NCBI GenBank assembly: GCA_964640155.1
Contig: CAZXEQ010000002.1
Span: 330,001-362,000, forward strand
Direction of reading: 5' to 3'
Origin: an uncultured bacterium
Lineage (GTDB): Bacteria; Auribacterota; JACPWU01
DNA length: 32,000 nt
Of this stretch, positions 1,177 through 31,709 are shown piece by piece. Within the stretch, counting starts at the first letter, position 1. The number at the start of each line of letters is the position of its first letter. The translations under genes were made by a program, and so were the position numbers. The notes under the pieces are model-generated. The model made no database searches and was not told the origin of the DNA. It saw only the letters and a program-made list of their open reading frames with translations.

Positions 1177-1530
1177 ATGAAAAAAGATCAGTTGTTTCAT
1201 GATTATGTTATTCATGAGGTTTTGAAAAACGTTGCTGATATTACCAGCCGTGCCATGTTTGGAGGTTGGGGCATTTACAAAGATGGCATTATTTTTGCAA
1301 TTATCGCTGATGGTGAACTCTATTTTAAAGTGGATGATAGTAATCGTGTTAATTTCGAAAAATTTGACAGCCATCCGTTTGTCTATTCTCAGGGCAAACA
1401 TAAACAGACCACGATGTCTTATTGGTTATTGCCAGAAGAAATTATGGAAGACGAGCTAGAGCTTACTCGATGGGTAGAGGGTTCGGTAAATGTAAGTAAG
1501 CAGAGCAAGAAAAAGATAACTTTGCAATAG
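1177..1530 (+). CDS. TfoX N-terminal domain protein
   Basis: This is a 117-aa ORF. The segment SRAMFGGWGIYKDGIIFAIIADGELYFKVD is the typical core of the TfoX/Sxy N-terminal domain. The overlapping minus ORF 1171..1401 is low complexity and is ignored. Confidence 0.6.
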   Translation: MKKDQLFHDYVIHEVLKNVADITSRAMFGGWGIYKDGIIFAIIADGELYFKVDDSNRVNFEKFDSHPFVYSQGKHKQTTMSYWLLPEEIMEDELELTRWVEGSVNVSKQSKKKITLQ

Positions 1531-1646
1531 AATTTTTCTTAAACATACAGCACATGAATCAATATTGAAGACAGAATTTATTTTATGATCTATCTCATAG
1601 AGCCTGGCAGTCTTTTCCTTTAAGCTTTCTCTCAAAGGAGTGAAAT

Positions 1647-3875: not shown

Positions 3876-3949
3876 TAATCAATTTTTGTTTAAAAAATCT
3901 TTTGAATTGTTGTTCTTTTCTAATCTTCTAACATTTATAATTACTCCCT

Positions 3950-4924: not shown

Positions 4925-5018
4925 GATGAAACATTTTGATAGAATAATGGGCTTTAGAGGGGTGTAATTATTAGACGGGTTTTTTGATCTTTAGAATACG
5001 ATAGATGAGGTTTTTTTA

Positions 5019-5105
5019 GGAAGGGTGGCTGAGTGGTTGAAAGCGCGGGTCTCGAAAATCCGTTTCCGAGCAATCGGAACGTGGGTTCGAATCCCACCCC
5101 TTCCG
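5019..5105 (+). tRNA. tRNA-Ser (anticodon CGA)
   Basis: Hand-folded cloverleaf. Acceptor GGAAGGG/CCCTTCC. Anticodon stem CGGGT/ATCCG with loop CTCGAAA. Long variable arm TTCCGA-GCAA-TCGGAA. T arm GTGGG-TTCGAAT-CCCAC. Discriminator G. No CCA is encoded. Confidence 0.9.
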
Positions 5106-5128
5106 ATTCTAAAATTTTTTGAATATAT

Positions 5129-5239
5129 GGTAGGGATTCGAAGGGTACCCGAGCGCGTCCTGTGGACGATGAAGCGAGGGACCCCGGCTCCGGAGGAACG
5201 AATGAAATGAGTGGGGTAGGAGGAATCCCACCCCTTCCG
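5129..5239 (+). repeat. tRNA-linked element, copy A (ends with a 17-nt duplicate of the tRNA-Ser(CGA) 3' end)
   Basis: GAATCCCACCCCTTCCG at 5223-5239 is identical to 5089-5105 inside the tRNA. The 5' end GGGATTCGAAGGG (5132-) is shared with copies B and C. Its GGGATTC is the reverse complement of the element's 3' GAATCCC. Confidence 0.6.
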
Positions 5240-5385
5240 TCAGACTACGCTTCTGGGGGGACTTTGTCTGGCAGTGCCAGGCATGTAATCTTTTAATTTA
5301 AGAAGTAGGTGAGAGGGATCTATTAACTAAGTTATTCAAGTTGTGTTAAGATGTCCGCTAAACATTTAGTTTAAAGGAGGTTATT

Positions 5386-5766
5386 ATGGAAGGAATGGTT
5401 ACACGAAAGGTGGAATTAAGAGGAATTGGATTTTTTTCAGTATTTAAGATTTTTTTCTCAATCATATTGTTTTTTTCATTAGTTTTTCTTATCCTGTTTG
5501 ATCTTTTTGGCTTTCAAATTGTGGGGACTTTGGCTGGATGGATAGGGGATATCAGACAGCTTTTTGTTGATTTGCAAACAAAGTTTCCAAGTATTTTTGA
5601 TAACAAGATATTATTTTCTTTGTTTCAATCTTTGTTATTAGGACTTATTTTAGGGCTGTTTATTGGTATTGCAACAGGCATTTTCAACCTTTTTGTAGCT
5701 CTTTTAGGTGGATTGAGTATTAAAATTAGAGAGAAGACCCCCGAGAAAAAAACATCATATCTTTAA
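5386..5766 (+). CDS. small hydrophobic membrane protein, function unknown
   Basis: This is a 126-aa ORF with a strong RBS (AAAGGAGG, 5 nt spacer, ATG). It has several long hydrophobic segments (FFSVFKIFFSIILFFSLVFLILF, LLLGLILGLFIGIATGIF). I recognise no family. Confidence 0.55.
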   Translation: MEGMVTRKVELRGIGFFSVFKIFFSIILFFSLVFLILFDLFGFQIVGTLAGWIGDIRQLFVDLQTKFPSIFDNKILFSLFQSLLLGLILGLFIGIATGIFNLFVALLGGLSIKIREKTPEKKTSYL

Positions 5767-5860
5767 AACTAGGGGATGGGGAGTAGGGCATAGGGTTTAG
5801 GGGAGGTAAGTATGAAAGTATTTTATCCCTGAATTTTAAGCTCTACTCTCTATTTTTGTC

Positions 5861-5934
5861 GCGCCCGTAGCTCAGCTGGATAGAGCACTTGCCTACGAAG
5901 CAAGGGGCCACAGGTTCAAATCCTGTCGGGCGCA
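5861..5934 (+). tRNA. tRNA-Arg (anticodon ACG)
   Basis: Acceptor GCGCCCG/CGGGCGC. D arm GCTC-AGCTGGATA-GAGC. Anticodon stem CTTGC/GCAAG with loop CTACGAA. T arm ACAGG-TTCAAAT-CCTGT. Discriminator A. Confidence 0.9.
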
Positions 5935-5974
5935 CGAATTCACGAGTGCAATAATTACTTGAGTCATTAACGGC

Positions 5975-6065
5975 AGGATTTGAAGGGAGGGCCGGGTGGC
6001 CGACTTGTAGGTCGAAGACCGGAAGGCACCAAATCCTCTCTCCGGAGACGGGCATGCTGTCGGGC
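5975..6065 (+). repeat. tRNA-linked element, copy B
   Basis: It shares AGGATTTGAAGGGAGGGCCGGGTGGCCGAC with copy C. The internal AAATCCTCTCTCCG resembles the tRNA-Ser(GCU) 3' end. CTGTCGGGC (6057-6065) repeats 5923-5931 of tRNA-Arg. The ends AGGATTTG and CAAATCCT are complementary. Confidence 0.5.
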
Positions 6066-6077
6066 CCCAAACTTTAT

Positions 6078-6569
6078 ATGAAGTGTGAATGTATGATACA
6101 AGAGACTCCTATTGATGAAAAAGATATAAAGTATATGACTGAAGCTTTGAAAGAAGCTCAGTATGCTTTTGATGATGGAGAAACACCTGTAGGAGCTTGT
6201 ATTGTGTATGAAGGGAAAATTATTGCACGCTCTCATAATCAAGTGGAGCTTTTAAGAGATTCTACGGCTCATGCTGAGATGATTGCCATGACTCAAGCTG
6301 CCGATTTTCTGAATAACTGGCGATTGTTAAATTGTACACTTTATGTGACAAAAGAGCCTTGTTTGATGTGCACAGGTGCGATTTTGCTTTCAAGAATTCC
6401 TCGGCTTGTTTTTGGTGCTTTTGATGTGAGAAATAGGGGATTAAGAGATTTAATTCATCCAGGTTATGAACCAGAAATGAAACAATTAAATATAGTGCAG
6501 GGAGTTTTAGAAGCAGATTGTCAATTTCTTTTGAAAGAATTTTTTAAGAAGGCTAGAGAAAAATCATAG
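6078..6569 (+). CDS. tadA: tRNA-specific adenosine deaminase
   Basis: Deaminase zinc motifs HAEMIA and PCLMCTGA, with TadA-like size and the context GETPVGACIV. The track ORF starts at 6054 inside repeat B. ATG 6078 or 6093 is the more plausible start. Confidence 0.8.
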   Translation: MKCECMIQETPIDEKDIKYMTEALKEAQYAFDDGETPVGACIVYEGKIIARSHNQVELLRDSTAHAEMIAMTQAADFLNNWRLLNCTLYVTKEPCLMCTGAILLSRIPRLVFGAFDVRNRGLRDLIHPGYEPEMKQLNIVQGVLEADCQFLLKEFFKKAREKS

Positions 6570-6623
6570 GTTGTAAATTAGTTTTTTATTTCGAATTACG
6601 ATATACGAGATACTATTTTTGAA

Positions 6624-6712
6624 GGAGAGGTGGCTGAGTGGCCTAAAGCGACGGCTTGCTAAGCCGTTGTACTGTTAATTCAGTACCGGGGGTTCGAATC
6701 CCCCCCTCTCCG
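6624..6712 (+). tRNA. tRNA-Ser (anticodon GCT)
   Basis: Acceptor GGAGAGG/CCTCTCC. Anticodon stem ACGGC/GCCGT with loop TTGCTAA. Long variable arm GTACTG-TTAATT-CAGTAC. T arm GGGGG-TTCGAAT-CCCCC. Discriminator G. Confidence 0.9.
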
Positions 6713-6913
6713 AAGTTTATTGGTAGCTTTAAAGTTAGCGGAAAGCAGCTTGAGCAAGAGGTCCATGTCGGTTATTGGGATTCGAAGGGAGGCCTGACAT
6801 AGCATAATGCAAATCATGCACTGCATGATTTGCGACTGTTAGGAGGGCCGGGTGGCCGACCGGAGTGAGTGTAACGAACGTAGGCGCCGAATCCCCCCCT
6901 CTCCGAAGTTTAT
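6713..6913 (+). repeat. tRNA-linked element, copy C (bounded by a 26-nt direct repeat of the tRNA-Ser(GCU) 3' end plus 8 flanking nt)
   Basis: CGAATCCCCCCCTCTCCGAAGTTTAT occurs at 6695-6720 and again at 6888-6913. The conserved core GGGATTCGAAGGGAGG starts at 6777, and GGAGGGCCGGGTGGCCGAC is at 6842-6860. An extra perfect 11-bp hairpin lies at 6809-6833. Confidence 0.65.
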
Positions 6914-7637: not shown

Positions 7638-8447
7638 ATGACTTCTTTACAGAATATAAGTATTCTTAACAATTTTCTCAAATTTTTCAACATTTCTTCA
7701 AGTTTAAATGAAACTATGTTACTCGAGGCTGTTGTAAAGTCTTTTTCAAAGCTTCCTTATGAGAATCTGACAAAGATTATTTGTAAAGCAGAGGAAGGGA
7801 CCCCCCAACGTGCCAGAAGAAATCCACAGAGAGTTTTAGGGGATCACTTTGATTTCGGAACAGGTGGAACTTGTTTTTCTTTAACTTCTACGCTTTTATG
7901 TTTGATTCGTTCACTCGGTTGGCAAGCGGAGCCTATTTTGGCGGATCGGCCTTATGGGCCCAATACGCATTGTGCCTTGCTGATTTGGATAGAGGGTAAA
8001 CCCCATCTTTTAGATCCAGGTTTTCTTATTTTGAAACCTGTGTTTGTAGGTTTTGAAGAAGATCTTTGTTTGGAAACTTCTTTTAATCAAATGATCCTTT
8101 CTTCGCATGACAACCGCTTGAATCTTGCAACTCTTGAAAAAGGACAAAAGAAATTGAGAATGACCTATAAATTAAATCCTGTAGAGAAAAGCGAATTTTT
8201 AAAGGTTTGGGATGAATCTTTTGATTGGGAGATGATGCGATATCCTCTTTTGACAAAGATTGTAGAAAATCATCAGATTTATTTGAGAAAGACCCGACTA
8301 CAAAATCGTTTTGCCAATGAGGCTCATCATTATGAATTAGCCGAAACAGAACTTTTAAAGAAAATTTCTCAAGAATTTAAAATTGCACCCATCATTGTTT
8401 CTAAAGCTTTAAATATTTTAAAGACCCAAGGAGAGCTTTGTGGCTAA
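7638..8447 (+). CDS. arylamine N-acetyltransferase-like protein (Cys-His-Asp fold)
   Basis: GTGGTCFSLTS (candidate catalytic Cys), NTHCALLIW (His) and HLLDPGF (Asp) have the order and spacing of the NAT family triad. This is motif-level recognition only. Confidence 0.45.
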   Translation: MTSLQNISILNNFLKFFNISSSLNETMLLEAVVKSFSKLPYENLTKIICKAEEGTPQRARRNPQRVLGDHFDFGTGGTCFSLTSTLLCLIRSLGWQAEPILADRPYGPNTHCALLIWIEGKPHLLDPGFLILKPVFVGFEEDLCLETSFNQMILSSHDNRLNLATLEKGQKKLRMTYKLNPVEKSEFLKVWDESFDWEMMRYPLLTKIVENHQIYLRKTRLQNRFANEAHHYELAETELLKKISQEFKIAPIIVSKALNILKTQGELCG

Positions 8448-9250: not shown

Positions 9251-10894
9251 GTGAGTTATCTTGTTTTAGCGCGTAAATGGAGGCCCCAAACTTTTGAAGA
9301 AATCGTGGGCCAGCCCCATGTGGTGACAACATTAAAAAATGCGATTACGATGAATCGTGTTGCGCATGCCTATCTTTTAAGTGGGCCCAGAGGAGTGGGT
9401 AAGACCAGTACTGCTCGTGTTTTTGCAAAAGCACTTAATTGTAAAAAGGCAATAACACCAGAGCCCTGCAATACTTGCGTGAATTGTACAGAAATTGCAG
9501 CTGGCTCCAGCATGGATATTTTAGAAATTGATGGTGCTTCTAACCGTGGAATTGATCAAGTACGGGAGCTTCGAGACAATGTTAAATTTGCTCCTGCCTC
9601 TGGACGCTTTAAAGTGTATATCATTGATGAAGTTCACATGCTGACTCAAGAAGCTTTTAATGCTCTTTTAAAAACTTTGGAAGAACCTCCAAGTCATGTG
9701 AAATTTGTTTTTGCAACTACAGAAATTCATAAAGTTCCTGCGACCATTCTTTCCCGATGTCAGAGATTTGATTTAAGAAAGATTTCTACAAGCCAGATTT
9801 TGAATCATCTCAAAGAAATGGTGAAGAAAGAAAAAGTAAAAGCCGATGAAAAAATTCTTTTTGCAGTTGCTAAAATGGGAGACGGCAGTCTTCGAGATGC
9901 AGAGAGTTTGCTTGATCAGCTCATTTCGTTTTCCGAAGGCCATATCAAATATGAAGAAGCCATGGATATTTTGGGTTGTGTCCCGCGAGAAAAAGTTCTT
10001 CAGCTGGTTGTGGCTTTAAAAGAAGGGGACTGGGAAAATCTTTTTGAAAATATTCGTAAAATGGATGAAGAAGGTAAAGACTTGAGTGTATTTGTGAGAG
10101 AGTTAGGGGCTCATTTAAGAGATCTTTTGATCCTTCAAATGGATTCAAAGCAGGTAGCCTTGGTTGAATTAAGCCCAGAAGATTTAGAGGAAGGTAAGCG
10201 GCAAACTCAATTCTTTTCAAGAGATCAACTTTTGCAAATGTTGGAAGTAACATTAGAAGCAGAAGATCGATTTAAAAATGCTTTATCAAAACGCTTTTTG
10301 CTCGAAGCTTTGTCAGTTCGGCTTTTTTTGATTGGACAGTCGATATCACTAGAAACATTGATTTCAAAAATAGATACTTTGGGGAATCTTCCTGCTTCTA
10401 TCGCTCCCTCTGTAAAAAATAAACAAGAATCTCCAGTGGAAACGCTAAAAAAAAACGAATCTTTTAGTATAACTCCTCGTACAAATAGTGTAGCTCCTGG
10501 TCATAAGCATACCGAAACCTGGGGGAAATTTTTGGTGGACATCGGTGGGCGTAAACCCCTTTTACACGCATATCTAAGAGAAGGAATGTTCCAATCAGAC
10601 GGGATTCGTCTTCAATTGATTTTTCCACAAGATAAAGCCTTTTTTCTAGATTCCTTAAAAGCACCCGAAAATCAAAAAGTGATTCGCGAGGGGATTCAAA
10701 AAACTTTTGGGAATGAATTTTCATTGGAATTTGTTTTAGGTTTCAAGAGCCCAATACAAAAGATGCAAGAGCAACCGAACAAAGTTTCAGAGCCAAGTGT
10801 TGTTGTGTCATCTGACATGGCGATTCAAGATGACCCTATCGTACAAAAGGCACTTGAAATTTTCGAAGGAAAAATTACGGAAATCAAAAAGTAA
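9251..10894 (+). CDS. dnaX: DNA polymerase III subunit tau/gamma
   Basis: GTG start preceded by AAGGAGA. Walker A GPRGVGKTS, zinc module CNTCVNCTE, Walker B IIDEVHML and sensor SRCQRF. Confidence 0.95.
   Translation: MSYLVLARKWRPQTFEEIVGQPHVVTTLKNAITMNRVAHAYLLSGPRGVGKTSTARVFAKALNCKKAITPEPCNTCVNCTEIAAGSSMDILEIDGASNRGIDQVRELRDNVKFAPASGRFKVYIIDEVHMLTQEAFNALLKTLEEPPSHVKFVFATTEIHKVPATILSRCQRFDLRKISTSQILNHLKEMVKKEKVKADEKILFAVAKMGDGSLRDAESLLDQLISFSEGHIKYEEAMDILGCVPREKVLQLVVALKEGDWENLFENIRKMDEEGKDLSVFVRELGAHLRDLLILQMDSKQVALVELSPEDLEEGKRQTQFFSRDQLLQMLEVTLEAEDRFKNALSKRFLLEALSVRLFLIGQSISLETLISKIDTLGNLPASIAPSVKNKQESPVETLKKNESFSITPRTNSVAPGHKHTETWGKFLVDIGGRKPLLHAYLREGMFQSDGIRLQLIFPQDKAFFLDSLKAPENQKVIREGIQKTFGNEFSLEFVLGFKSPIQKMQEQPNKVSEPSVVVSSDMAIQDDPIVQKALEIFEGKITEIKK
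10447..10455 (+). promoter_or_regulatory. A9 tract in dnaX, candidate slippage/frameshift site
   Basis: The tract reads CTA AAA AAA AAC in frame 0. The -1 frame reaches TAG at 10465-10467, and the other frame reaches TAA at 10470-10472. Confidence 0.25.
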
Positions 10895-10895
10895 T

Positions 10896-11495
10896 ATGAG
10901 TTATAAGCTAGATGCTTTTCAAGATTTAATAGATGCTTTTAAGCTTTTCCCGGGTATTGGTACGAAAACTGCTGAACGCATGGCCCTTCATTTATTGAAG
11001 GCTCCTCTTCAGAAAACCAAAGATTTTTCAAGAATGGTCCAGGTTGCGCGAGAGCGCTTGAGATTTTGTTCAGAGTGTTTTCTCTTTACTGAGAAAAATC
11101 CATGTGCTGTATGTCAGGATTCTGAAAGAGATAGAAATATCATTTGTGTTGTGGAGGAGGCTAAAGATGCTTTTGTCCTTGAGAGATCTGGGGGATTTCA
11201 AGGACTTTATCATGTTTTAATGGGGAAAATTTCTCCTTTGGATGGAATTGGTCCTGATGAATTAAAAGTCATGGAACTTTTAAAGCGTGTTCAACAACTG
11301 AAGCCACGAGAAATTATTTTGGCGACAGGAATGGATGTAGAAGGAGAAGCAACAGCGCTTTATTTAGGGAAGTTGTTGTCAACGGAAGGGATTGTTATTT
11401 CTCGAATTGCTTATGGAATCCCTGTGGGAATGGGCTTAGACTATGCAGATGAATTGACTTTGACTAGAGCTTTGGAAGCAAGAACAAGTCTTTAA
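10896..11495 (+). CDS. recR: recombination protein RecR
   Basis: The ATG at 10896 lies 1 nt after the dnaX stop. The track start at 10797 overlaps dnaX and is rejected. HhH motif PGIGTKTAERMA, C4 zinc finger CSECFLFTEKNPCAVC and a Toprim region. Confidence 0.9.
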   Translation: MSYKLDAFQDLIDAFKLFPGIGTKTAERMALHLLKAPLQKTKDFSRMVQVARERLRFCSECFLFTEKNPCAVCQDSERDRNIICVVEEAKDAFVLERSGGFQGLYHVLMGKISPLDGIGPDELKVMELLKRVQQLKPREIILATGMDVEGEATALYLGKLLSTEGIVISRIAYGIPVGMGLDYADELTLTRALEARTSL

Positions 11496-11579
11496 AAGAA
11501 GGGATTTCATTGCATTTGGATCAGACCTGTGTTACTAAAGATGCTTGTTCTACTGTAGAGGAAAGGAAGTAAGAGTTCT

Positions 11580-13517: not shown

Positions 13518-14355
13518 AGTAAAATCTATTTGGAAAATTAAAGATCGAACGTTGACCTTTTCTCGGCGTCCTCTCATCATGGCTATTCTCAATGTTACTC
13601 CAGACTCTTTTTCAGATGGAGGGCGATTTTTAGATAGAGGAAAAGCAATTGAGCAGGCAATGATATTGGTTAAAGAAGGTGCGGATATTTTGGACATTGG
13701 AGGGATGTCAACACGTCCAGGTGCAGAGGAAATCCCTGTAGAAGAAGAACTGAGGCGTGTGATTGAAGTAATTCAAGCTTTGAGTTCTCAAATTAAAATT
13801 CCTATTTCTATTGATACCTATCGAGCGCAGGTTGCTGAACAGGCTTTAGCAGCGGGTGCCCATATTGTGAATGATATTGGGGCTTTAGGCCTAGATTCTA
13901 GAATGGCTTCTGTTGTGAGGGACATGGGGGCAGGTCTTATTCTGATGCATATGAGAGGAACTCCCCAGACCATGCAAAAAGACTTACATTATGAAGATTT
14001 ACTAGAAGAGGTTTCGAAATTTTTAAAGAATCGTTTACAAGTTGCTCGAGAAAATGGAATTAGTGAGGAGCAAATGGTTGTGGATCCCGGTCTTGGTTTT
14101 GGAAAAAGTTTCGAGCAAAATTTAGAAATCTTAAAGAATCTAGAGTTCTTTCATCAGATGGAACGTCCTCTTCTTGTAGGCCCTTCCCGAAAATCATTCA
14201 TTGGCCAAATCTTGCAGAATACTCCTGAAAAAAGGCTCTGGGGGACACTTGCTTCTGTCACGGCCTGTTTTTATCACAGAGCAAATATTCTTCGTGTTCA
14301 TGATGTGCTCCCTGTTTTTGAGTTTTTAAAAGTCCTTTGTGAAATTGAGAAATAG
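13474..14355 (+). CDS. folP: dihydropteroate synthase
   Basis: Motifs ILNVTPDSFSDGG, DIGGMSTRPG and VDPGLGFGK. The start is uncertain. ATG 13474 overlaps ftsH by 44 nt, and 13489 is an alternative. Confidence 0.9.
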   Translation: MYRRFMNPKPSLPPEVKSIWKIKDRTLTFSRRPLIMAILNVTPDSFSDGGRFLDRGKAIEQAMILVKEGADILDIGGMSTRPGAEEIPVEEELRRVIEVIQALSSQIKIPISIDTYRAQVAEQALAAGAHIVNDIGALGLDSRMASVVRDMGAGLILMHMRGTPQTMQKDLHYEDLLEEVSKFLKNRLQVARENGISEEQMVVDPGLGFGKSFEQNLEILKNLEFFHQMERPLLVGPSRKSFIGQILQNTPEKRLWGTLASVTACFYHRANILRVHDVLPVFEFLKVLCEIEK

Positions 14356-14365
14356 GTTTTGCTAT

Positions 14366-14490
14366 AAAAATATATTCTTTAAGTAAGAAGCGGGTCCTGA
14401 CGCTTGGCAGCCTCACCATACTTATGAAAAATTGCGCGCGGTGGGGCTTCCCCGCCAAGCGTCACCCATATCTATAAAGAACATACTTTT
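14366..14490. repeat. GC-rich palindromic element, copy E5 (intergenic folP/cdaA)
   Basis: Termini AAAAATATATTCTTTA and TAAAGAACATACTTTT are inverted. The core is GGGTCCTGACGCTTGGCAGCC...GGGGCTTCCCCGCCAAGCGTCACCC, with a 10-bp stem GACGCTTGGC/GCCAAGCGTC. It is homologous to E1-E4. Confidence 0.85.
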
Positions 14491-14585
14491 AATAAGTTCA
14501 ACCGGAAAAGTAGATTTTTGAATTTTCCGTTATCTCTTTCGAATCAAAATGAAGTAAAATCTTTTTAACAACAAAGCGAGATTTT

Positions 14586-23146: not shown

Positions 23147-23215
23147 AAAGTATAGAATTTGTGATGAATCTTTTCAATGATTTATAACAATGTTTGCTCA
23201 ATAGATATTGTAATT

Positions 23216-23339
23216 AAAAGTGTGTACTTTTAAAAAAGTGGCAGGGCCTGACACTCGTCATCCCCACCGTGCTCATAAAAAATTGCGCGCGGCGGGGCTC
23301 CCCGCCGAGTGTCACCCGTATTATAAAGGACACACTTTT
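23216..23339. repeat. GC-rich palindromic element, copy E1 (intergenic greA/pbpC)
   Basis: The termini AAAAGTGTGTACTTT and AAAGGACACACTTTT are inverted repeats. The core has a 9-bp stem TGACACTCG/CGAGTGTCA and a central GCGCGC. Confidence 0.85.
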
Positions 23340-23349
23340 ATACATGCTA

Positions 23350-25551
23350 TCACTCAACATGAATATTCACTTTTGCTGAAGCGCCTGTTTCGTCTGTAAC
23401 GTAAATCTCATGCAGGCCAGGTTGAGGAATCCAAAAAAGAGCTTTTTCTGGACGGGTTTTCCCTATGAGAAGCCCATTCACAAACCACCATCGCCAGGAA
23501 TGAGGCGATCCTCCTATAGACTGAAGAGGTAGTTTTTGATTTTTTTGAAAAGAGGGGGCGTCTAAGAAAAATTTTTGATTTGAAGAAATAGAAGAAATGG
23601 TTAGTTTAGAAATATCTTTTTCAAGTTCAATAGATTTTGCTAAACCTTCGTCCTGGATTTGAGGCCATGGTTTATTTTTCGGCTTTAAGCAAGATAGAAG
23701 TTTTAAAGTCAAGGGTGCTGCCAAAGTTTGTCCAACTAATTCATGAGAGCCTTTCCCAAGAGAGTTTCCAAGCCATGTTACAAGTGTGTATTCATGTGTT
23801 ACTGCTACACACCAAGCATCTTTGTGTGCACTGCTTGTGCCTGTTTTCCAGGCAGGATTAAATGGAATGGCTTCAGGACAAACAGCGTAAGTTCGTTTGG
23901 GATCACTTAAGGCATTCAGTACTTGCCAGCATGCTTTTTGAGATAATATATTTTGATGGTGTGAATAAAAGTGCGGTCCTTTAAAAAGTGGCGGGTCCTG
24001 CCACTCGTCAGCCCCAACGTGCTCACTAAAAGTTGCGCGCGATGGGGCCCCCCGCCGAGTGTCACCCGCATCTGTAAAGGACACACTTTTATCTACAGGA
24101 TTTACATTTTGTGTGGCAGTGTCAGTATTAGATGTTAAAAGAGGAATATAAGTGACAGGCAGATGAATTCCTCCTCGCCCCAGTGTTGCAAAAGCTTCTG
24201 CAAGTTCTATAGGAGAAGCCTCGGCTCCTCCTATAGCTAAAGAAAGGCCATATCGATCTGGAAATTGCTCCAGTCTTTTAAATCCTAAACTTTGTAAAAT
24301 TCCAACTACGCGAGCGATGCCTATTTTAGAAAGTAAAATCATGGCGGGGATATTTCGACTTTGAGCAAGTGCTTCTGCCGCACACATAAAGCCTCTAAAA
24401 GTATGATCAAAATTGCTAGGGGTGTAGCCCTCCCAGCTCAAAGGAAGGTCTTTTAAAATTGTTGTGGGGGTGCAAATTCCTGCTTCAAAAGCGGCTGCGT
24501 AAATAAATGGTTTTAATGTAGAACCTGTTGAATAGTAACGGTTGGATAAATCTAAATTATTTGCATCGTCACATAAATTAATCGAGGCCAAACACTCAGA
24601 AGTTTGTGTGTTTAAAAGAACAAGTGAAAGAGCGTTGATCTGAGAAGATTTTAACTTTTCGAATTCTTGTTTGGCTATGAGGGTTAACTGCTCTTGAATA
24701 TCTTTATCTAAAGAGGTTTTAAATTTTCCTTGTTGAAATTTTTCCTTTAAGGTCAGTAAGATGGGCAGAATTCCTGATTTTTTTTCTTGTGGCAGAGCTT
24801 GCCATGTGGCTTGAATAGGTTCTTCAATAGCGCGTGCGTAATCTTGCTCAGAGATCATTTTTTCTGATAACATTCGAAACAAAACGTGATTACGTCTCTT
24901 AAGTGCACGTTCTATAAAACGATCTGGGCGATAGCGATTGGGACTTTGAGGAAGGCCTGCCAAAAGGGCAGCTTGGCTTAAAGAAAGATTGCGACATGAA
25001 ATTCCAAAATATCTCCAGCTTGCAGCACCTACCCCGATTAAATTCCCTCCCAAAGGACATCGATTGAGATATTCTGTCAAAATTTCATTCTTACTCATTT
25101 TTCTTTCTAATTGATAAGCACGAATAGATTCAATCAGTTTGGATGAGAAAGTCCGTGGTTTTGGATAACGTAAATGTTCAACTTGCATGGTAAGAGTGCT
25201 TGCGCCACGTATGATTTTCATGGCTTTAAAATCTTGCCAAAGAGCAGCAGCAACGCCAATCCAGTCCACTCCATGGTGTTGATAAAAACGATGATCTTCG
25301 ACGGCAACAATTGCTTTAAAAAGATAAGGGCTTATTTCTTCTTCTTTTAATGGAAAATACCATTCATTTTTTTCTGAAACAAAAGCCCCCAAAGGCTTTC
25401 CTTCTCGATCTTCTATCCAAAGGCTGGGTGGAGGTTTTGGAGTGGGAGGATAAGACCAGGAGTAAACTGCAATAGAAAACGAAATACAAATAAAACTGAA
25501 TACGCTAATAATTCCCAGTATGAAAATTTTGAAAGAATGTTTAATGGTCAT
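23350..25551 (-). CDS. pbpC: penicillin-binding protein 1C
   Basis: GT51 motifs EDHRFYQHHGVD and RGASTLTMQ. Transpeptidase motifs STGSTLKPF (SxxK), SRN and KTGTS. A C-terminal PBP1C-type beta domain. A 4-nt overlap with the upstream alpha-2-macroglobulin gene. It carries repeat copy E2 in frame. Confidence 0.9.
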   Translation of the reverse strand: MTIKHSFKIFILGIISVFSFICISFSIAVYSWSYPPTPKPPPSLWIEDREGKPLGAFVSEKNEWYFPLKEEEISPYLFKAIVAVEDHRFYQHHGVDWIGVAAALWQDFKAMKIIRGASTLTMQVEHLRYPKPRTFSSKLIESIRAYQLERKMSKNEILTEYLNRCPLGGNLIGVGAASWRYFGISCRNLSLSQAALLAGLPQSPNRYRPDRFIERALKRRNHVLFRMLSEKMISEQDYARAIEEPIQATWQALPQEKKSGILPILLTLKEKFQQGKFKTSLDKDIQEQLTLIAKQEFEKLKSSQINALSLVLLNTQTSECLASINLCDDANNLDLSNRYYSTGSTLKPFIYAAAFEAGICTPTTILKDLPLSWEGYTPSNFDHTFRGFMCAAEALAQSRNIPAMILLSKIGIARVVGILQSLGFKRLEQFPDRYGLSLAIGGAEASPIELAEAFATLGRGGIHLPVTYIPLLTSNTDTATQNVNPVDKSVSFTDAGDTRRGAPSRATFSEHVGADEWQDPPLFKGPHFYSHHQNILSQKACWQVLNALSDPKRTYAVCPEAIPFNPAWKTGTSSAHKDAWCVAVTHEYTLVTWLGNSLGKGSHELVGQTLAAPLTLKLLSCLKPKNKPWPQIQDEGLAKSIELEKDISKLTISSISSNQKFFLDAPSFQKNQKLPLQSIGGSPHSWRWWFVNGLLIGKTRPEKALFWIPQPGLHEIYVTDETGASAKVNIHVE
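23967..24090. repeat. GC-rich palindromic element, copy E2 (inside pbpC, reading frame kept open)
   Basis: It has the same termini and core as E1. It is translated on the minus strand as DKSVSFTDAGDTRRGAPSRATFSEHVGADEWQDPPLFKGPHFY, between the SRN and KTG motifs of the transpeptidase domain. Confidence 0.85.
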
Positions 25552-28500
25552 GAATGTGAATGGGTTGCAATTTTCATTGTTTCATTGTCACGACTGATGC
25601 TGTTAATTGAAATATCATACATGCATTCAGCTTTTACAGGGGGAACAGTAAAAGTTCCAGGAGTCACAGCCCTGGCTAGATAAGTATATTGTGCTTTCCC
25701 TTTGTCTAACATTTTTCCGTAGAGCACAAGACGATCATCACGAATATCGATATGACTATCCATAAATGTAGTTTGAGTAGGGTCTTTGAGAATAGAAGCT
25801 GAAGTTGCAAGCCTTGGATTTTCAATTTCAAGTCCAGCGGGAAGCAAATCTTCAATGACCATATTGTCATAACCCAAAGGACATTCTAGATGTATCTCTA
25901 CTTGTATCAAGTCTCCACTACAAATTTTATCTAGGGCGATTGCGTGTCCCTGTTGATCAAGATATCTTTTTCTCACACTTATCCCATGATCTTCATTTAA
26001 AGGAGGCTCTTTGGCAAGGCCTGTGATGCTCCATGCAACATAGCCCTTTGTTTTTTCAGCTCCTGAGATTTTAACTGAAAATTCTTTCCCATTCAGAAAT
26101 TTATTTGAAGAATTCCAGAGAAGAGAATCTCCATTCCCTGTTTCAGAAATTTTCTCTGTCCCCGCCCAAAGTTCGGCTGATGTAAAAGGTTCTCCAAAAT
26201 CTGTTTCCTTTAAATAAGACCCCAGTGCAAGAAGAGCAAAAGCATGATCTTGCGTACTTTGCCATTTTTTTTCGCCGCCGGCTTGGGCAAGTTCTTTAAC
26301 CAATTTGGGAAGGGCTGGATTTTGTGGATCAAGTTCAATCAGACTTTGAATTAAAATAGCTTGATCTCGAATAGGGGACCCAATGTTTCCAGATAGGTCT
26401 CTGTTTTGGCGAGGGTGAGGTAGATTCTGAGGAATTAACTTTAAGGCCAAATCTCGTCTGCCAGAATAAAGCCAGGCCAGGGCAAGATAAAAGCGAGTTG
26501 AAGGATGGATGCTAGAGGAGATAGAAGTTGGGAGAGTGGAAGGTCTTTGAAAAATATCTTCCAGACGTGACATCATGGATCTCTGGGGATATCCCGCTTT
26601 AGCAAGAACAAAACAGGCATAAGCCTGAATCTCTAAAATATTGGGTTGATCAGAACTTTCGTTTAATAATTTTCGAACATAATTTAAAAGTCGATCGCGA
26701 AAATCAGTTGGAATAGAGAAGCCGGCGTTTTCTGCTTCGGTGATAAAATGTGTTGCATAAACACTGGCCCAGCTCCAGCTCTCAGTATAGCCAGGCCACA
26801 TAGCAAGTCCCCCTTCAGCTGTTTGCATACTGATCAAACGATTAAGAGCTGTTTCAACTCTTTGATGAATGTATTGAGTATTAAATGGTTCTGGGAAAAT
26901 CTTCTCTCCTAGTTTTTGCAATCCAATGAGAGGAAAGGTGGTGCTAACCGTTTGTTCGGCACATCCATGGGGGTATTCATTGAGATAATCCAAAGCCTTT
27001 GTCAGATTTAAAGTGGGAAATGGAGTTACGTGAATATTCAACTGTGTTGTTCCCTCAATCCATTTTTCTGGAATTCTGATTTTAAAATCTTGATGGGGTT
27101 TAAGGGTTGCATATCCTCCTTCAGAAATTGAAGGACAGGCAGGACGAATAGGGAATATGAGATTTTGCTGATATTCTTGTCCATTGAGTTGCGCTTTGAT
27201 TTTAAGACGAGCTATTCCCATTTTATTCTTAGCTTTCAAAGGAATGGTGATCACGGTTTGAGCGTTATCGGGAATGGAGTTTGTAGTAAAATTGATTTTT
27301 CTTTCGGAGGAGTGTGGAAAATAAACAGGACTTTTATTGTCTAGTTCTATTGAGAGGTTAGCAATGCCTTCACTTCCCGTATGATTGAAAATGACAATCG
27401 GTATTTCAAAATGATCATTATTTGCAGCAAAGCGAGGAGTAGTACTTTGTAACATGAGAGGAGATTTAACAAAAATGGGCTTAGATGCTGATCCAAAAAA
27501 TTTTTTAGAATGAGCAATGGCCATGACTCGCAATTGACCTGTGAATTCTGGAAGACGAAAATCAACTTTTACGTTTCCATTTTCGTCACAGCGAAGTACT
27601 TTTGAAACAAGTGCAACATTTTTCATACGTTGTATAGACAATGGAGTTAAATGACGTGGCTCATAACCTCCATCTCCTCCCACCGAACTTTTAGGATTTA
27701 TTTTTGGAATCTCTGGGAAAAGTTCTCCATAAAGATCTGAAACAAATACGTTCAAAGCTCGATTTCGATGAAAGAATGAAAAAGGATCTGGGGGTGAGAA
27801 ATTCGTGAGTTGAAGAATCCCTTCATCTACGATTAACAAAGTGACCCTTGCATTTTTAGCAGGTTTATTTTGAGGGGTTAAAACTTTTGCTTCAACACGG
27901 ATTTTGTTTTTGGGCAGGATTTCTTTTTTTGTTTGAATCTTTATTTTCAGCTTTTGATCGTTATTGTTGATCGCAAGGCGAGTCACGCCAAAAGCACGAT
28001 GGATTTTCCATGGAGCCTTGGAATGGACGGGCTGAATCACCGTCGCACTTACATAGGCATTGGGACGATAGCTTTCTAAAATATCAATCGGAATAGATAT
28101 ATGAGATTGTGTCATGGTCAGAACTTTGTGAAAGAGAACATTCTCTGTTTCTATCGTTAAAAGAAGTTGCCCTGGGAAAGGACTGCGAACAATGACTTGC
28201 GCTTGACCTCCAACTTTCAAAGAGGACGAATATCTATTAAAGTGCGTCTTTTTAAAAAGAAGTGGGTCCTGCCGCTCGTCAGCCCCATCGTGCTCAGTAA
28301 AAGTTGCGCTCGATGGGGCCCCCCGCCGAGCGTCACCCACATTTTTAGAATCATTTTTTAATTCTTTGCCCATAGGAATAATTTCAATTTGTAATTGCTC
28401 TGGGTTCTCTCGAGAGACTGAATCCTCCCAGCCATTTTCACTGCTCACATAAAATCCATGTGAAGTGAAGCTGCCTGTTTGAGAATCTTTGATAGCAATC

Positions 28501-31289
28501 ACATAAGACCCTTCACTGGGAGGAATGATTTCAAAATGTCCTTTCTCTTGTTCTAAAATTGCATAAGAAGAAGATGCTTTTTCCAGTATACGTGTTGAGT
28601 CATAATGATAGCTCCCATCGCGATAGGTCATGATATTGTTCCAAGTCTCACGAAAAAGTTGTATCTCCATTTGTTTCGAAATCTTGGCTATTTGCCCATG
28701 CCCAGAAACACATGCAATATCAAAAACATACGGAGAACCGGGCTGAGCTTTTTGATTTTGTTGAGGACGTATGCCGACATAATATGGAACAGTATCAATG
28801 AAAACTCTTTTTGTGGCACTGACAGCCCTACCGCCCATTTCTTGAACACTTCCCAGAACAGTTAATTGCCAGGGACCCGTATACGAGGGGGTTTCTTTTA
28901 TAAGAGAGTTCGGGGGGTGATTGAGAAGAAGAGAAAGATCTACTTTCCATTCACCTTTGCCTTTCTCATTTAATTTAATCTTAGGCGACTCAATCGATTG
29001 TCCTTGGGGAAGAATACCTCCAAGTGTTTTAAAAGCATTGGCAGAATCTGTGAAAGTCCATTCTTTCCAATGTTTGGGTTTGAATGGTGCAGGATCGAGA
29101 CGACTTGAAAGTGTTGCATCTGTTCCTGAAGCAGGTTGTCCAAAAAGATAGTTTGCTGCAATATGAACTGAAAGAGATTGTGAGGATAAAGTATAGCGAT
29201 CATGGCGAATATTTTTTAAATTTAAAGCAACTTTCATTCTATCGGGAATAAATTCCTCAACAAAAAAAGAAGTTGTTCCAAATGTTTTAGCATCAGCATC
29301 TTTTGATTTTGGAAGGCCAATGGATACAGTCCAATTTCCAGTGGGAATATCTTGAGGTAATTTGACAGAAAGGTAAACCATTCCAGAACTGTCCACCTTG
29401 GCCATGTGTCCTTTCCAATTTCTCCCATCGGGCCTATAAAATTGACACCAGACAGGAAATTCTTCGGGGGTACTTAAATGAGGCCCTCGAATGATTGCCC
29501 AGAGATGGACTTTTTCACCGGGTCTATAGGCTCCACGTTCAGAGTAGACAAAAGCTTCATAGGCTTTGGATGAATAAGGACTCCCAGAAATATCAAAATG
29601 AGAATAGGAAAGTTCGCTTGTTCTTAAATCTAACCATGTCAAATGGGCGGGCTCTGTGGCAGCGTTAAAATTTGCAACTACTACGACAGGTTTCTCATCG
29701 TTAGAGGTTTCAATGGTATTGATTTTAATAATACCATTTTCATCAGAAATTCCTTCTCCCAAAAGTTGATTCTTATTGGAAAATAAGCGAATGCGTACAT
29801 GCTCCATGGGTTTACCTGTACTTAAAGACAGAGTCCAAACAAAAAGACCATGAGGGAATCTCTTGGCCACTAAACCAATGTCAGATAATGTAACAACCGT
29901 TGTATCGGATAACTCCCAGGCATATCCTTGATTCTCATTCTCGGCTTTGATTTGAATTTCATAAACCCCATTTTGCTTGAGATTTTCAGGCAGGAGCTCA
30001 TCCAAGGATAAATGAATATCCTGAACTTTATTTTTCTCCATTTCTAATTTAAGAGATTTTTGTGCGATTACTTGACTAAAATGATGAAGACCCATCCATT
30101 GATTCTCATAAACCGTGTTTCTCCAATGGACAATATTATTCTCATACATTTTTGTGAGAGTGATTTGAATGTTTTGAACATTGATAGCGTGAGCTAGAAT
30201 CATTCGATTCCCTTTAGCTCCCAAAAACCCATGATCCTGTTCAAACCACACAGAAGCCTTACGATCTGGGATAAAAACACTAAAGAGATCTTCCTGAGGA
30301 TAATTTTTCGAATCATTTTTGATGCGAGGTGCATTTACTTTCAATGCATATCGGTTTCCAGGGATAAAATCTGCCTCAAGACTGACTCCAAACCATTCTC
30401 GAATCAGTGTGAAGGGTAAAATAGGTTCAATAGAAAGAATTTCTTTTAAAATTTCTATATCGACATCATTATTGAAATAAAGTTGCAGTCTAATTTTTCC
30501 TTTTGAAGAAGAATAAGGTTCTACTTTTGTAATCATTAAGTGGCGGTTAAGGGTCAATTGCGTTTCATAAAGATTGGTTAATCCTAAAGGCCCACTAATC
30601 CCACATAGTCCTTCTCGAATCCTTACAATCACTTGAAGATAAGAGGATATATTTTGATAGAGAAAAGGAGTGGGCTCTGTCATCACGCGTATCACATTTG
30701 CGGTTACGCCTTCATAAAGGCGAAAAGGGATTTTTTGATGAACCAGAGATTCAATCTCCAGAAATTTTGCAACTTCAGTTGGAAGCATTTTGTCGTTAAA
30801 TTCAATTTCAATCATAAACTGATTTTTTTCGTCAAAGGCTGCTTGGCGTACAGATAAAATTTGCAAGGCTGGGGTTTTGACGGTTGCAGAATACGACTGA
30901 TTCAGTAAAAACCCTTCCTTGGACTTTAAAGAATGAAGAGGAAAAGTAAAAGTAAAGGCTGTTGCTTTGGGGAGGTCTTTCTGGGGTGTAAAAGTAAGCT
31001 TTCGAGTGTTCACCCATTCCCAATGTCCAGGGATGAGGTAAGACGCATCGCCTGAACTCTTGATGATGACTTTGGATGAAACATCTTCACAAACCATATC
31101 TAAATTAAATTCCCAGGATAAAACAGGCCGTGTTCCTGTCTCAATATTGTTTCCTGGGTTAAAGCGTTCTATTTTAAGAACATTGAGCGTTTTTAATTGA
31201 TAAGCATGATGAAATGCTGCCCAGGCAAGAATATTTGTAATTGCAAAACAAAAAACGGTTATCCAAAATCGTTTGTGTAACATGAACAT
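25548..31289 (-). CDS. bacterial alpha-2-macroglobulin family protein (YfhM/ECAM-like)
   Basis: This is a 1913-aa ORF with an N-terminal hydrophobic anchor, many MG-type beta domains, and the thioester motif GCAEQ. GGAGA precedes the third-codon ATG (31283) at good spacing, so 31283 may be the true start. It carries repeat copy E3 in frame. Confidence 0.9.
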   Translation of the reverse strand: MFMLHKRFWITVFCFAITNILAWAAFHHAYQLKTLNVLKIERFNPGNNIETGTRPVLSWEFNLDMVCEDVSSKVIIKSSGDASYLIPGHWEWVNTRKLTFTPQKDLPKATAFTFTFPLHSLKSKEGFLLNQSYSATVKTPALQILSVRQAAFDEKNQFMIEIEFNDKMLPTEVAKFLEIESLVHQKIPFRLYEGVTANVIRVMTEPTPFLYQNISSYLQVIVRIREGLCGISGPLGLTNLYETQLTLNRHLMITKVEPYSSSKGKIRLQLYFNNDVDIEILKEILSIEPILPFTLIREWFGVSLEADFIPGNRYALKVNAPRIKNDSKNYPQEDLFSVFIPDRKASVWFEQDHGFLGAKGNRMILAHAINVQNIQITLTKMYENNIVHWRNTVYENQWMGLHHFSQVIAQKSLKLEMEKNKVQDIHLSLDELLPENLKQNGVYEIQIKAENENQGYAWELSDTTVVTLSDIGLVAKRFPHGLFVWTLSLSTGKPMEHVRIRLFSNKNQLLGEGISDENGIIKINTIETSNDEKPVVVVANFNAATEPAHLTWLDLRTSELSYSHFDISGSPYSSKAYEAFVYSERGAYRPGEKVHLWAIIRGPHLSTPEEFPVWCQFYRPDGRNWKGHMAKVDSSGMVYLSVKLPQDIPTGNWTVSIGLPKSKDADAKTFGTTSFFVEEFIPDRMKVALNLKNIRHDRYTLSSQSLSVHIAANYLFGQPASGTDATLSSRLDPAPFKPKHWKEWTFTDSANAFKTLGGILPQGQSIESPKIKLNEKGKGEWKVDLSLLLNHPPNSLIKETPSYTGPWQLTVLGSVQEMGGRAVSATKRVFIDTVPYYVGIRPQQNQKAQPGSPYVFDIACVSGHGQIAKISKQMEIQLFRETWNNIMTYRDGSYHYDSTRILEKASSSYAILEQEKGHFEIIPPSEGSYVIAIKDSQTGSFTSHGFYVSSENGWEDSVSRENPEQLQIEIIPMGKELKNDSKNVGDARRGAPSSATFTEHDGADERQDPLLFKKTHFNRYSSSLKVGGQAQVIVRSPFPGQLLLTIETENVLFHKVLTMTQSHISIPIDILESYRPNAYVSATVIQPVHSKAPWKIHRAFGVTRLAINNNDQKLKIKIQTKKEILPKNKIRVEAKVLTPQNKPAKNARVTLLIVDEGILQLTNFSPPDPFSFFHRNRALNVFVSDLYGELFPEIPKINPKSSVGGDGGYEPRHLTPLSIQRMKNVALVSKVLRCDENGNVKVDFRLPEFTGQLRVMAIAHSKKFFGSASKPIFVKSPLMLQSTTPRFAANNDHFEIPIVIFNHTGSEGIANLSIELDNKSPVYFPHSSERKINFTTNSIPDNAQTVITIPLKAKNKMGIARLKIKAQLNGQEYQQNLIFPIRPACPSISEGGYATLKPHQDFKIRIPEKWIEGTTQLNIHVTPFPTLNLTKALDYLNEYPHGCAEQTVSTTFPLIGLQKLGEKIFPEPFNTQYIHQRVETALNRLISMQTAEGGLAMWPGYTESWSWASVYATHFITEAENAGFSIPTDFRDRLLNYVRKLLNESSDQPNILEIQAYACFVLAKAGYPQRSMMSRLEDIFQRPSTLPTSISSSIHPSTRFYLALAWLYSGRRDLALKLIPQNLPHPRQNRDLSGNIGSPIRDQAILIQSLIELDPQNPALPKLVKELAQAGGEKKWQSTQDHAFALLALGSYLKETDFGEPFTSAELWAGTEKISETGNGDSLLWNSSNKFLNGKEFSVKISGAEKTKGYVAWSITGLAKEPPLNEDHGISVRKRYLDQQGHAIALDKICSGDLIQVEIHLECPLGYDNMVIEDLLPAGLEIENPRLATSASILKDPTQTTFMDSHIDIRDDRLVLYGKMLDKGKAQYTYLARAVTPGTFTVPPVKAECMYDISINSISRDNETMKIATHSHS
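26952..26963 (-). other. thioester motif C-A-E-Q of the alpha-2-macroglobulin
   Basis: The minus-strand codons TGT GCC GAA CAA lie in frame with the ATG at 31289 (Cys is codon 1443), in the context YPHGCAEQTVS. Confidence 0.8.
28239..28359. repeat. GC-rich palindromic element, copy E3 (inside the alpha-2-macroglobulin gene, reading frame kept open)
   Basis: The core is GTGGGTCCTGCCGCTCGTCAGCCCC...GGGGCCCCCCGCCGAGCGTCACCCAC. The right terminus is degenerate. It is translated as NDSKNVGDARRGAPSSATFTEHDGADERQDPLLFKKTHF, in the same element frame as E2. Confidence 0.8.
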
Positions 31290-31361
31290 TCTCCAAAATC
31301 CAAAGTTTTTTAGTTAGAAATAGTAGGAAAATAATCTCACATATAAACTTAAGTCCTCGGG

Positions 31362-31495
31362 CTTTTCACCGTCCTTTAGGATGAGGTAAGAAACGGGGCC
31401 TGCCACTCGTCAGCCCTACCGTGCTCATGAAAAATTGCGCGCGGGGCGGGGCTCCCCCCGCCGAGTGTCACCCGTATTGTAAAGGACACACTTTT
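31362..31495. repeat. GC-rich palindromic element, copy E4 (upstream of the alpha-2-macroglobulin gene)
   Basis: The core is GGGGCCTGCCACTCGTCAGCCC...GGGGCTCCCCCCGCCGAGTGTCACCCG. The right terminus AAAGGACACACTTTT is intact. The left terminus is partly degenerate, so the left boundary is approximate. Confidence 0.75.
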
Positions 31496-31709
31496 TTACA
31501 CACGATCGGGAAAATTTTCTTAAAAACACTTTGAGATTTTCGAGAAGCAGGGTCAAGAAGAAAACAGAAGTGATTTATAAAATACGAAGTAACTCGCTGA
31601 AGGAGAGAAAGTAGGGATAAAATTTTTTTGAAAAATTATTTTACAATTAAAAAAACTTGAAGATTTTTCTAAATCTCAAGCTCGAAGTTTAAGGGATTTC
31701 TCAAAAGGA

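Follow-up and report, generated by a model that had tools for sequence, protein, structure and literature searches.

A 32-kb stretch of DNA from an uncultured bacterium (contig CAZXEQ010000002.1; this whole stretch is called the window below) contains five copies of a short, GC-rich palindromic repeat, designated E1 to E5, and raises the question of what such repeats are: mobile DNA, structured RNA, or signals at the ends of genes. An earlier inspection made without database searches (the sequence-only reading) had recognized the five copies, and a repeat search, an alignment over ~125 nt, and a covariance model, R1, built from 15 copies all place them where that inspection did and group them as one family. 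The repeats first described there very probably constitute a real family of ~147-bp non-coding mobile DNA hairpins, that is, a MITE (miniature inverted-repeat transposable element), carried by a bacterium of the Planctomycetes-Verrucomicrobia-Chlamydiae (PVC) group. The five elements, with their matches to R1, are the following.

14356-14504, plus strand: E1, full element of 149 bp, directly after the folP stop and upstream of cdaA; match at 14365-14492, 127 bits.
23205-23351, plus strand: E2, full element of 147 bp, at the 3' end of pbpC, between that gene and greA; match at 23215-23341, 131 bits.
23956-24102, plus strand: E3, full element of 147 bp, within the pbpC open reading frame (ORF); match at 23966-24092, 145 bits.
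28231-28372, plus strand: E4, an older element of ~142 bp with decayed arms, within the alpha-2-macroglobulin (a2m) ORF; match at 28237-28360, 136.5 bits.
31334-31507, plus strand: E5, element of ~174 bp, between a deaminase gene and the a2m start; match at 31376-31497, 104 bits.

With filters off, R1 finds no sixth copy in the window. The family totals 16 copies, five in the window and 11 in related contigs (77-152 bits). In the alignment of the window copies the core is nearly invariant, and its GC content of 59-69%, against 38.7% for the window, agrees with the earlier impression, gained by eye, of GC-rich elements in AT-rich host DNA. E1 is the most decayed of the full-length copies (core 59% GC), the left arm of E5 carries roughly 26 extra nt, and the right terminus of E4 and the left terminus of E5 are degenerate. 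For E2, inspection of the sequence by eye moved the computed ends by 1 nt; for E5, the right end was computed, and the left end, the register of its duplication and the 7/9 count given below were read by hand.

As had been proposed, each window copy forms a long interrupted hairpin, with folding energies of -45 to -58 kcal/mol, and no shuffled sequence folds as well (z-scores of -5.4 to -6.8 for E1-E4 and -2.8 for E5). The consensus hairpin on 15 copies has 24 pairs, with 97.2% of cells paired; in a control in which the 3' partner is slid, pairing falls to 34-55%. Three pairs change on both sides, from A-U to G-C in three copies and from C-G to U-A in six and in five, and such compensatory double changes, found in 14 cells, were matched by none of 500 shuffles. 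The co-variation of the central stem reported by the sequence-only reading is real in its variants and in its compensatory pairing, but the variants had been assigned to the wrong copies: the stem reads CGCTTG/CAAGCG in E1, CACTCG/CGAGTG in E2, E3, and E5, and CGCTCG/CGAGCG in E4. One tract, CCCCGCC, is invariant in all 16 copies yet unpaired in the consensus fold. A manual tally of the pair tables gives small and similar counts of G-U pairs and of A-C mismatches, the latter corresponding to G-U on the opposite strand, and neither strand is therefore favoured.

The element is longer than first thought. Homology among well-preserved copies extends 10-11 nt past the motifs AAAAGTGTGT and ACACACTTTT on each side; these motifs, taken at first as the termini of a ~124-bp element, are subterminal, and the element measures ~147 bp plus a 9-bp target-site duplication. 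Its terminal inverted repeats (TIRs) are ~28 bp long, about GATCCTGTATATAAAAGTGTGTCCTTTA, and enclose the GC-rich imperfect palindrome of ~80 nt; the ends of E2, of E3, and of a copy on the related contig L016 align as inverted repeats over ~28 nt (GAT..TGTATATAAAAGTGTGTCCTTTA).

Relatives of the window show that the insertions differ between genomes. The comparison genome is a metagenome-assembled genome (MAG) of the PVC group, deposited as Candidatus Auribacterota bacterium SZ_szas25bin.51, nine contigs of which carry the family according to a pattern scan of one genome per species. Two of its contigs, L003 and L011, are orthologous to the window at 73-80% nucleotide identity. The E2 and E3 sites are filled in the window and empty in L003, that of E3 being empty also in the protein ortholog P0005, and the E5 site is filled in the window and empty in L011. 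E4 is present in both the window and L011, at the same codon position of a2m. The junction of a2m and pbpC, where the two genes overlap in the window, is empty there and filled in L003, with the copy in the opposite orientation relative to synteny. A more distant relative, Chlamydiae MAG GCA_016178005.1 (L021), has a PBP1C, the pbpC product, 61% identical to that of the window; it lacks E4 in a2m, and the element family is absent from this MAG. The relatives of the host carry the labels Candidatus Auribacterota or Chlamydiae, taxa that belong to the PVC group or are allied to it. The sequence-only reading had named a lack of empty sites in relatives as grounds for giving up the mobile-element interpretation, and three of its five sites prove to be empty. 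Differences of this kind between related genomes imply that the family has been mobile since the lineages split, and, judged from these assemblies, it appears to have gained sites, or both gained and lost them, since that time.

The empty site opposite E3 also discloses what insertion does to its target. On the gene strand, the window reads ...ACA CAAAATGTA (147-bp element) CAAAATATA TTA TCT..., and the relative L003 reads ...ACA CAA CAAAATGTA TTA CCT.... The empty site thus holds a single 9-mer (CAAAATGTA on the gene strand) and no element, E3 is flanked by two, and the arrangement must be viewed as a 9-bp target-site duplication. The two BLAST blocks around E3 overlap by 12 nt in L003. Candidate duplications flank the other copies as well.

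23947-23955, plus strand: left duplication of E3, TATATTTTG; partner TACATTTTG at 24103-24111, 8/9 match.
14347-14355, plus strand: left duplication of E1, GAGAAATAG; partner GAAAAGTAG at 14505-14513, 7/9 match, at offsets 9 and 12.
23196-23204, plus strand: left duplication of E2, GCTCAATAG; partner ACTCAACAT at 23352-23360, 6/9 match.
31325-31333 and 31508-31516, plus strand: duplication of E5, AGGAAAATA and GGGAAAATT, 7/9 match.

The E1 duplication takes in the folP stop codon TAG, and that of E2, whose register and 6/9 count come from manual reading, sits at the same 10/10 offsets as that of E3. The candidate for E4 is weak (GAGGACGAA / TAGGAATAA, 6/9). The L016 copy, which has perfect TIRs, is flanked by an 8-mer with a 7/8 match. 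Per fixed position, the background probability is 0.012 for a match of at least 6/9 and 0.0014 for at least 7/9. A duplication of TA alone, in the style of IS630 and Correia elements, was suggested by the TA flanking AAAGTG...CACTTT in E1-E3; it was ruled out, since the element takes in the outer 10-11 nt and what the empty site reveals is a duplication of 9 bp. An apparent retention of the element's outer ends (AATCCTG...) at the empty L003 site proved in the codon-level comparison to be a coincidental 7-mer. With sizes of 142-174 bp, below the limit of ~500 bp for such elements, no open frames other than read-throughs of 40-50 codons, TIRs, a target-site duplication checked against an empty site, and dispersed copies polymorphic for presence and absence, the repeats have the properties by which a MITE is recognized, and the non-autonomous, MITE-like nature proposed for them at first sight stands.

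Two of the copies, E3 and E4, lie inside genes, a circumstance that the sequence-only reading had missed. The genes concerned are adjacent.

23350-25551, minus strand: pbpC, encoding penicillin-binding protein 1C (PBP1C), 733 aa; Pfam domains Transgly, Transpeptidase, and BiPBP_C.
25548-31289, minus strand: a2m, encoding a bacterial alpha-2-macroglobulin, 1913 aa; Pfam domains bMG3, MG2, bMG5, bMG6, A2M_BRD, A2M, and bMG10.

Both ORFs are intact. The minus-strand read-through of E3, NPVDKSVSFTDAGDTRRGAPSRATFSEHVGADEWQDPPLFKGPHFYSHH, falls in a length-variable loop in the PBP1C transpeptidase region, and E4, which reads ...KNVGDARRGAPSSATFTEHDGADERQDPLLFKKTHF..., falls in the linker that follows bMG6 (aa 839-948) and precedes the bait-region domain (aa 1022-1161). 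The two are read on the minus strand in the same element frame, GD[TA]RRGAPS.ATF.EH.GADE.QDP, and together with the L011 ortholog of E4 they encode one peptide frame, GD.RRG.PS.ATF.EH.GADE.QDP. The PBP1C of the window, at 733 aa, exceeds that of the relative (P0005), at 681 aa, by 52 residues. The element and its duplication add 147 + 9 = 156 bp, or 52 codons, so that an intact insertion leaves the reading frame unshifted; this frame-neutral length, with the single reverse-strand frame that contains no stop codon, accounts for the survival of copies in mid-gene. E2 adjoins the same gene, the pbpC stop TGA (23350-23352, minus strand) straddling the junction between element and duplication.

The E3 and E4 inserts may be translated as surface loops, as their intact frames suggest. 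If so, two cell-envelope proteins, PBP1C and alpha-2-macroglobulin, are each inflated by ~50 residues, which matters for annotation and modelling; an AlphaFold2 model of PBP1C, with a mean predicted local distance difference test score of 56.8, was too poor for placing the insert. A profile search with the insert peptide among 5.8 billion proteins returned only three ORFs, of 50-63 aa. These (P0001-P0003, at L016 315-506, L017 2063-2233, and L018 837-989) are gene calls over intergenic copies, in the peptide frame of E3 and E4, and are probably annotation artefacts arising from the stop-free frame. Three spurious short ORFs in so large a collection indicate that the insert is not widespread in proteins. 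Spurious short calls are thus one effect of the element on annotation, and broken or rearranged metagenome assemblies can be another.

The most interesting point about the family is the frozen GC-rich core within a coding region, for which the E4 site supplies the measurement.

28265-28344, plus strand: GC-rich core hairpin of E4; 76 of 80 nt identical to the L011 ortholog, against 73.5% for the surrounding gene.

All 26 third codon positions in the core are identical between E4 and L011, compared with 815 of 1441 (57%) elsewhere in a2m (Fisher p = 5.6e-7). Over its 26 codons the core reaches 94.9% identity, and the best 26-codon window of a2m outside it reaches 92.3%. In their arms these two copies have diverged, indels included, and in many copies the AT-rich arms and TIRs are decayed with the core almost unchanged. 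Gene conversion or other concerted evolution is an unlikely cause, because the orthologs E4 and L011 (95%) are closer than the window paralogs E3 and E4 (~91%, hand-counted from the alignment) and because E4 and its ortholog have in common a loop variant, CTCAG, found in no other copy. On this comparison of sequences, the constraint on the core appears to act at the nucleotide level, on a nucleic-acid structure or a binding site, and not on the peptide; the frozen synonymous sites separate the two kinds of constraint, and so provide a concrete case for why such cores are conserved. Tentatively, and as a rather unlikely extension, the ~80-nt core may have a function of its own as nucleic acid, by binding protein or by forming a structure, and have been spread by the MITE, instead of being passive selfish DNA. 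Selection would then be keeping the core steadier than host coding sequence even in mid-gene, where a strong hairpin should hinder translation, and copies within genes might act on the mRNA through ribosome pausing, processing, or stabilization. A remote analogy is offered by the GC-rich "byp" inserts in AT-rich yeast mitochondrial genes, which ribosomes bypass.

We propose the following course of events. The element, itself non-coding, probably depends for its mobility on a DDE-type transposase that acts in trans and has its gene elsewhere in the genome. This putative enzyme would cut AT-rich targets with a 9-bp stagger and so leave the 9-bp duplication. Copies landing in tolerant loops or linkers would persist as hydrophilic inserts of 44-53 residues, as E3 may do in PBP1C and E4 in alpha-2-macroglobulin, and others would settle at gene ends, as with E1, which abuts the folP stop, and E2, which provides the stop of pbpC. 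After insertion the AT-rich arms would decay, and the GC-rich core would be held nearly constant, synonymous sites included.

As the sequence-only reading had stated, the window encodes no transposase: a Pfam domain search of its ORFs found none, and its gene content is housekeeping (dnaX, recR, ftsH, folP, cdaA, pdxJ, greA, three tRNAs, and a phosphoglucomutase-family gene, probably glmM). A cognate insertion sequence (IS) with the same TIRs was found neither in the window, nor in the related loci, nor in 21 contigs from the JGI metagenomes that match an 18-nt TIR motif; no RAYT, TnpA, or IS1111-like gene occurs in the window or in the related loci examined.

Several observations weigh against this account of a trans-mobilized MITE with a constrained core. 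No autonomous element with matching ends was found in ~120 kb of related sequence. E3 alone has a clean empty site, and the remaining duplications are imperfect, some of them located with positional slack. Since intact copies measure 147-149 bp, the frame-neutral footprint of 156 bp may fail for some insertions. The case for translation of the inserts consists of the intact ORFs themselves. The core-constraint argument draws on one orthologous pair, E4 and L011; in a second pair, on contigs L008 and L017, the core is ~89% identical (hand count) and the flanks 86-87%, too close to be informative. Finally, every relative is a metagenome assembly, in which repeats can cause misassembly.

The most likely rival to the reading as a MITE sees in the GC-rich core chiefly a cis-element of the host, either a binding site or a structural DNA or RNA module of the kind seen in repetitive extragenic palindromic (REP) sequences and BIMEs, and holds that transposition is merely its means of distribution and that the copies persist through their benefit to the host. 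Such a role is favoured by a core that is frozen at synonymous positions in orthologs even as those copies decay in their TIR arms, by the invariance of CCCCGCC in all 16 copies though it is unpaired, and by a core GC content that stays at 59-69% in a 38.7% GC genome. We found, however, no host factor, expression data, or positional rule that would go with it; copies stand in both orientations relative to transcription, inside and outside ORFs; E2, E3, and E5 are dispensable in the relative; and the constraint comes from one orthologous pair. We regard this rival as possible, if somewhat unlikely. Placement at gene ends instead invites interpretation of the hairpins as bidirectional transcription terminators or mRNA-stabilizing stem-loops, given that E1, E2, and E5 lie immediately downstream of the stops of folP, pbpC, and the deaminase gene and that CTTTT follows the hairpin on both strands. 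The T run belongs to the stem, however, and leaves no free tail; a scan for intrinsic terminators calls none of the five copies, its total in the window equalling the shuffled expectation (17 vs 15.1); and E3 and E4 stand amid long intact ORFs, where termination would destroy the gene. A function in termination or stabilization is accordingly quite unlikely.

The stable hairpin with compensatory pairs would also suit a structured non-coding RNA, either a small RNA or a cis-regulatory RNA family, and small RNAs derived from MITEs are known in Coxiella (PMC5896051). That the repeats are RNA genes and not mobile DNA is nonetheless very unlikely: TIRs, target-site duplication, and empty sites show transposition, two copies are within ORFs, the copies are not consistently oriented to the genes beside them and at one orthologous site stand reversed, the G-U and A-C counts single out no strand, no Rfam match was obtained even at E <= 10, and the scan detected no excess of promoter or terminator signals. 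(A weak sigma-70-like match in the left arm of E2, at 23234-23207 on the minus strand, with TTTAAA, a 16-nt spacer, and TACAAT, scores 9/12 and faces outward, in the direction of greA; such a match does not exceed chance, and positions 23177-23149 hold a better one, at 10/12.) Least probable of all, to the point of being very nearly dismissed, is the view of the repeats as REP elements spread by a REP-associated tyrosine transposase (RAYT, of the Y1 HUH type) or as PATE-type derivatives of IS200/IS605, with the plus orientation stemming from a replication-strand bias. It would fit the co-orientation of all five window copies, with a cumulative GC skew that rises across the whole window, consistent with one replichore, and the presence of a CGTC tetranucleotide in the GC-rich palindromic core. 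TIRs of ~28 bp and a 9-bp duplication, however, are not produced by Y1 transposition; the length is 147 bp and not 20-40 bp; and no RAYT or TnpA gene is present in the sequence examined. The co-orientation itself, which the sequence-only reading had described correctly for the window (5/5 on the plus strand), has a two-sided chance probability of 1/16 and is no property of the family, both orientations occurring among relatives: the copy at the relative's a2m/pbpC junction is reversed relative to synteny, and L008 and L017 differ at one site.

The family whose mobility is argued for above has a narrow known distribution. A pattern scan found it in one of 185,579 species representatives; six other genomes that matched the first pattern were chance matches, with GC contents of 65-73%. 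Two Logan contigs and one ENA contig also carry the family. In Rfam, the window at gathering thresholds yields only its three tRNAs, and at E <= 10 nothing falls on the elements, in keeping with the novelty first suspected. By blastn, E3 has no match in plasmids or phages, and the core pattern likewise gave no hit in the metagenomes of JGI or in viral contigs. For the 18-nt TIR motif the JGI metagenomes yielded 21 contigs, about as many as chance was estimated to give, and in none of them is there a core or a convincing inverted partner; L034, among the TIR 18-mer matches, is an unrelated tandem repeat. As judged against these collections, the element family is uncatalogued so far, and it is of a sort already known.

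Its closest counterpart by description is QMITE2 of Coxiella burnetii (Wachter et al. 2018), which has TIRs of 23-29 bp, direct repeats of 7-9 bp unique to each copy, a REP-like GC-rich core more durable than the TIRs, copies overlapping the 3' ends and stops of genes, orthologous sites conserved between strains, and one inverted copy (PMC5896051). The present element resembles it in being small and non-coding, in the lengths of TIRs and repeats, in the persistent GC-rich core, in the overlap with gene 3' ends and stops, in the conserved orthologous sites, and even in a copy inverted at an orthologous site, as in L008/L017. It differs in that QMITE2 measures ~190 bp, has a gammaproteobacterial host, is a hot-spot for IS1111 insertion, which is not seen for the present element, and in functional genes has been reported at their 3' ends only, whereas E3 and E4 are inserted in frame in mid-gene.

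In that last respect the element is more like RPE-1 to RPE-10 of Rickettsia (Ogata et al. 2000, 2002), which a later account describes as palindromic repeats of ~150 bp inserted in frame into ORFs (PMC10969869). The likeness lies in ~150-bp palindromes in an AT-rich genome, of which a large share stand in frame within unrelated housekeeping ORFs with a conserved peptide and others between genes. A palindromic repeat in frame in ORFs with a conserved peptide is likewise what we find, for E3 in PBP1C and for E4 and its L011 ortholog in alpha-2-macroglobulin. The host, an uncultured PVC-group bacterium as opposed to Rickettsia, is different, and clear TIRs with a demonstrated 9-bp target-site duplication are features of the present element. 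To our knowledge, TIRs and target-site duplications have not been described as regular features of RPEs. Set beside RPE and QMITE2 by their descriptions, the present element is treated here as an analogue of both, and not as a member of the RPE families, its host belonging to a different phylum.

Correia elements of Neisseria and RUP of Streptococcus pneumoniae are likewise MITEs of 100-155 bp with TIRs and long hairpins, often co-transcribed with neighbouring genes. As IS630-related MITEs with TA targets, they duplicate a TA dinucleotide; the present element, in contrast, duplicates 9 bp outside longer TIRs, and the TA next to AAAGTG lies inside it. With REP and BIME sequences it shares a GC-rich imperfect palindrome that is dispersed in the genome and conserved in sequence. 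REP units, as characterized in PMC3733652, are 20-40 bp long with a GTAG or CGTC head and are without TIRs or target-site duplications, features that a 147-bp element with TIRs and a 9-bp duplication does not share, and it does not qualify as a REP/RAYT element. The phenomenon known from RPE and QMITE, mobile palindromes surviving inside protein-coding genes, is thus extended to an uncultured PVC-group lineage, in a case whose anatomy is unusually clear, with TIRs, a duplication of 9 bp, an empty site, and a footprint of 156 bp that leaves the frame unshifted.

Some further observations concern the distribution and rearrangement of copies. Four of the five window copies crowd into 8.3 kb (23205-31507) around the pbpC-a2m pair, and the relative adds a fifth site at the junction of the two genes; related contigs otherwise have one copy per locus of up to 8 kb. 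In the more distant L021, an unrelated palindromic repeat of G and C tracts (GGGGAGGGTTAGGGAGGGG...CCCTCCCCTAACCCCTCCC) is present at 8105-8175, 9905-9981, and ~11440-11530; the places concerned are the a2m ORF, its junction with pbpC, and probably the very PBP1C loop that holds E3. The a2m-pbpC locus seems repeatedly to collect small palindromic inserts.

At one site the elements in L008 (543-668, plus strand) and L017 (2079-2205, minus strand) are in opposite orientations, with collinear flanks of 86-87% identity; this could reflect an in-situ flip between the arms, two independent insertions at a hot-spot, or misassembly at a palindrome. About 730 nt from that element, L008 contains ~5.4 kb (1397-6848) not in the collinear L017, with genes for a chromate transporter, a DUF1259 protein, a beta-propeller protein, DUF2231, and a thioredoxin-fold protein. 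No transposase occurs in this L008-specific segment, and it and the window together hold only housekeeping and transport genes. Between L007 (250-560) and L018 (765-1075), near-identity starts at the element core and extends to one side, the opposite side being unrelated; the breakpoint falls inside the element, pointing to recombination between copies or to chimeric assembly at the repeat. In a variant copy at L013 113-245 (77 bits), the left arm (CTGCCACTCGTCAGCC) is replaced by the self-complementary CCCCGATGTCACATCGGGG, which forms a local hairpin instead of the lost long stem.

Two further features of the window lie away from the element copies. Positions 1313-5105 are 98.5% identical to L020 (JAYRIK010000221.1), from the same MAG that is otherwise 73-80% identical; the 3' end of tRNA-Ser(cga) (5019-5105) is the exact limit of this level, beyond which identity falls to 87%, which suggests recent exchange of a tRNA-adjacent island, or a mixed bin. 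Nearby, an exact 26-nt direct repeat occurs at 6695-6720 and 6888-6913, 193 nt apart, and consists of the last 18 nt of tRNA-Ser(gct) (6624-6712) and the next 8 nt; it looks like the att duplication of an integrative element, though the segment between is very short.

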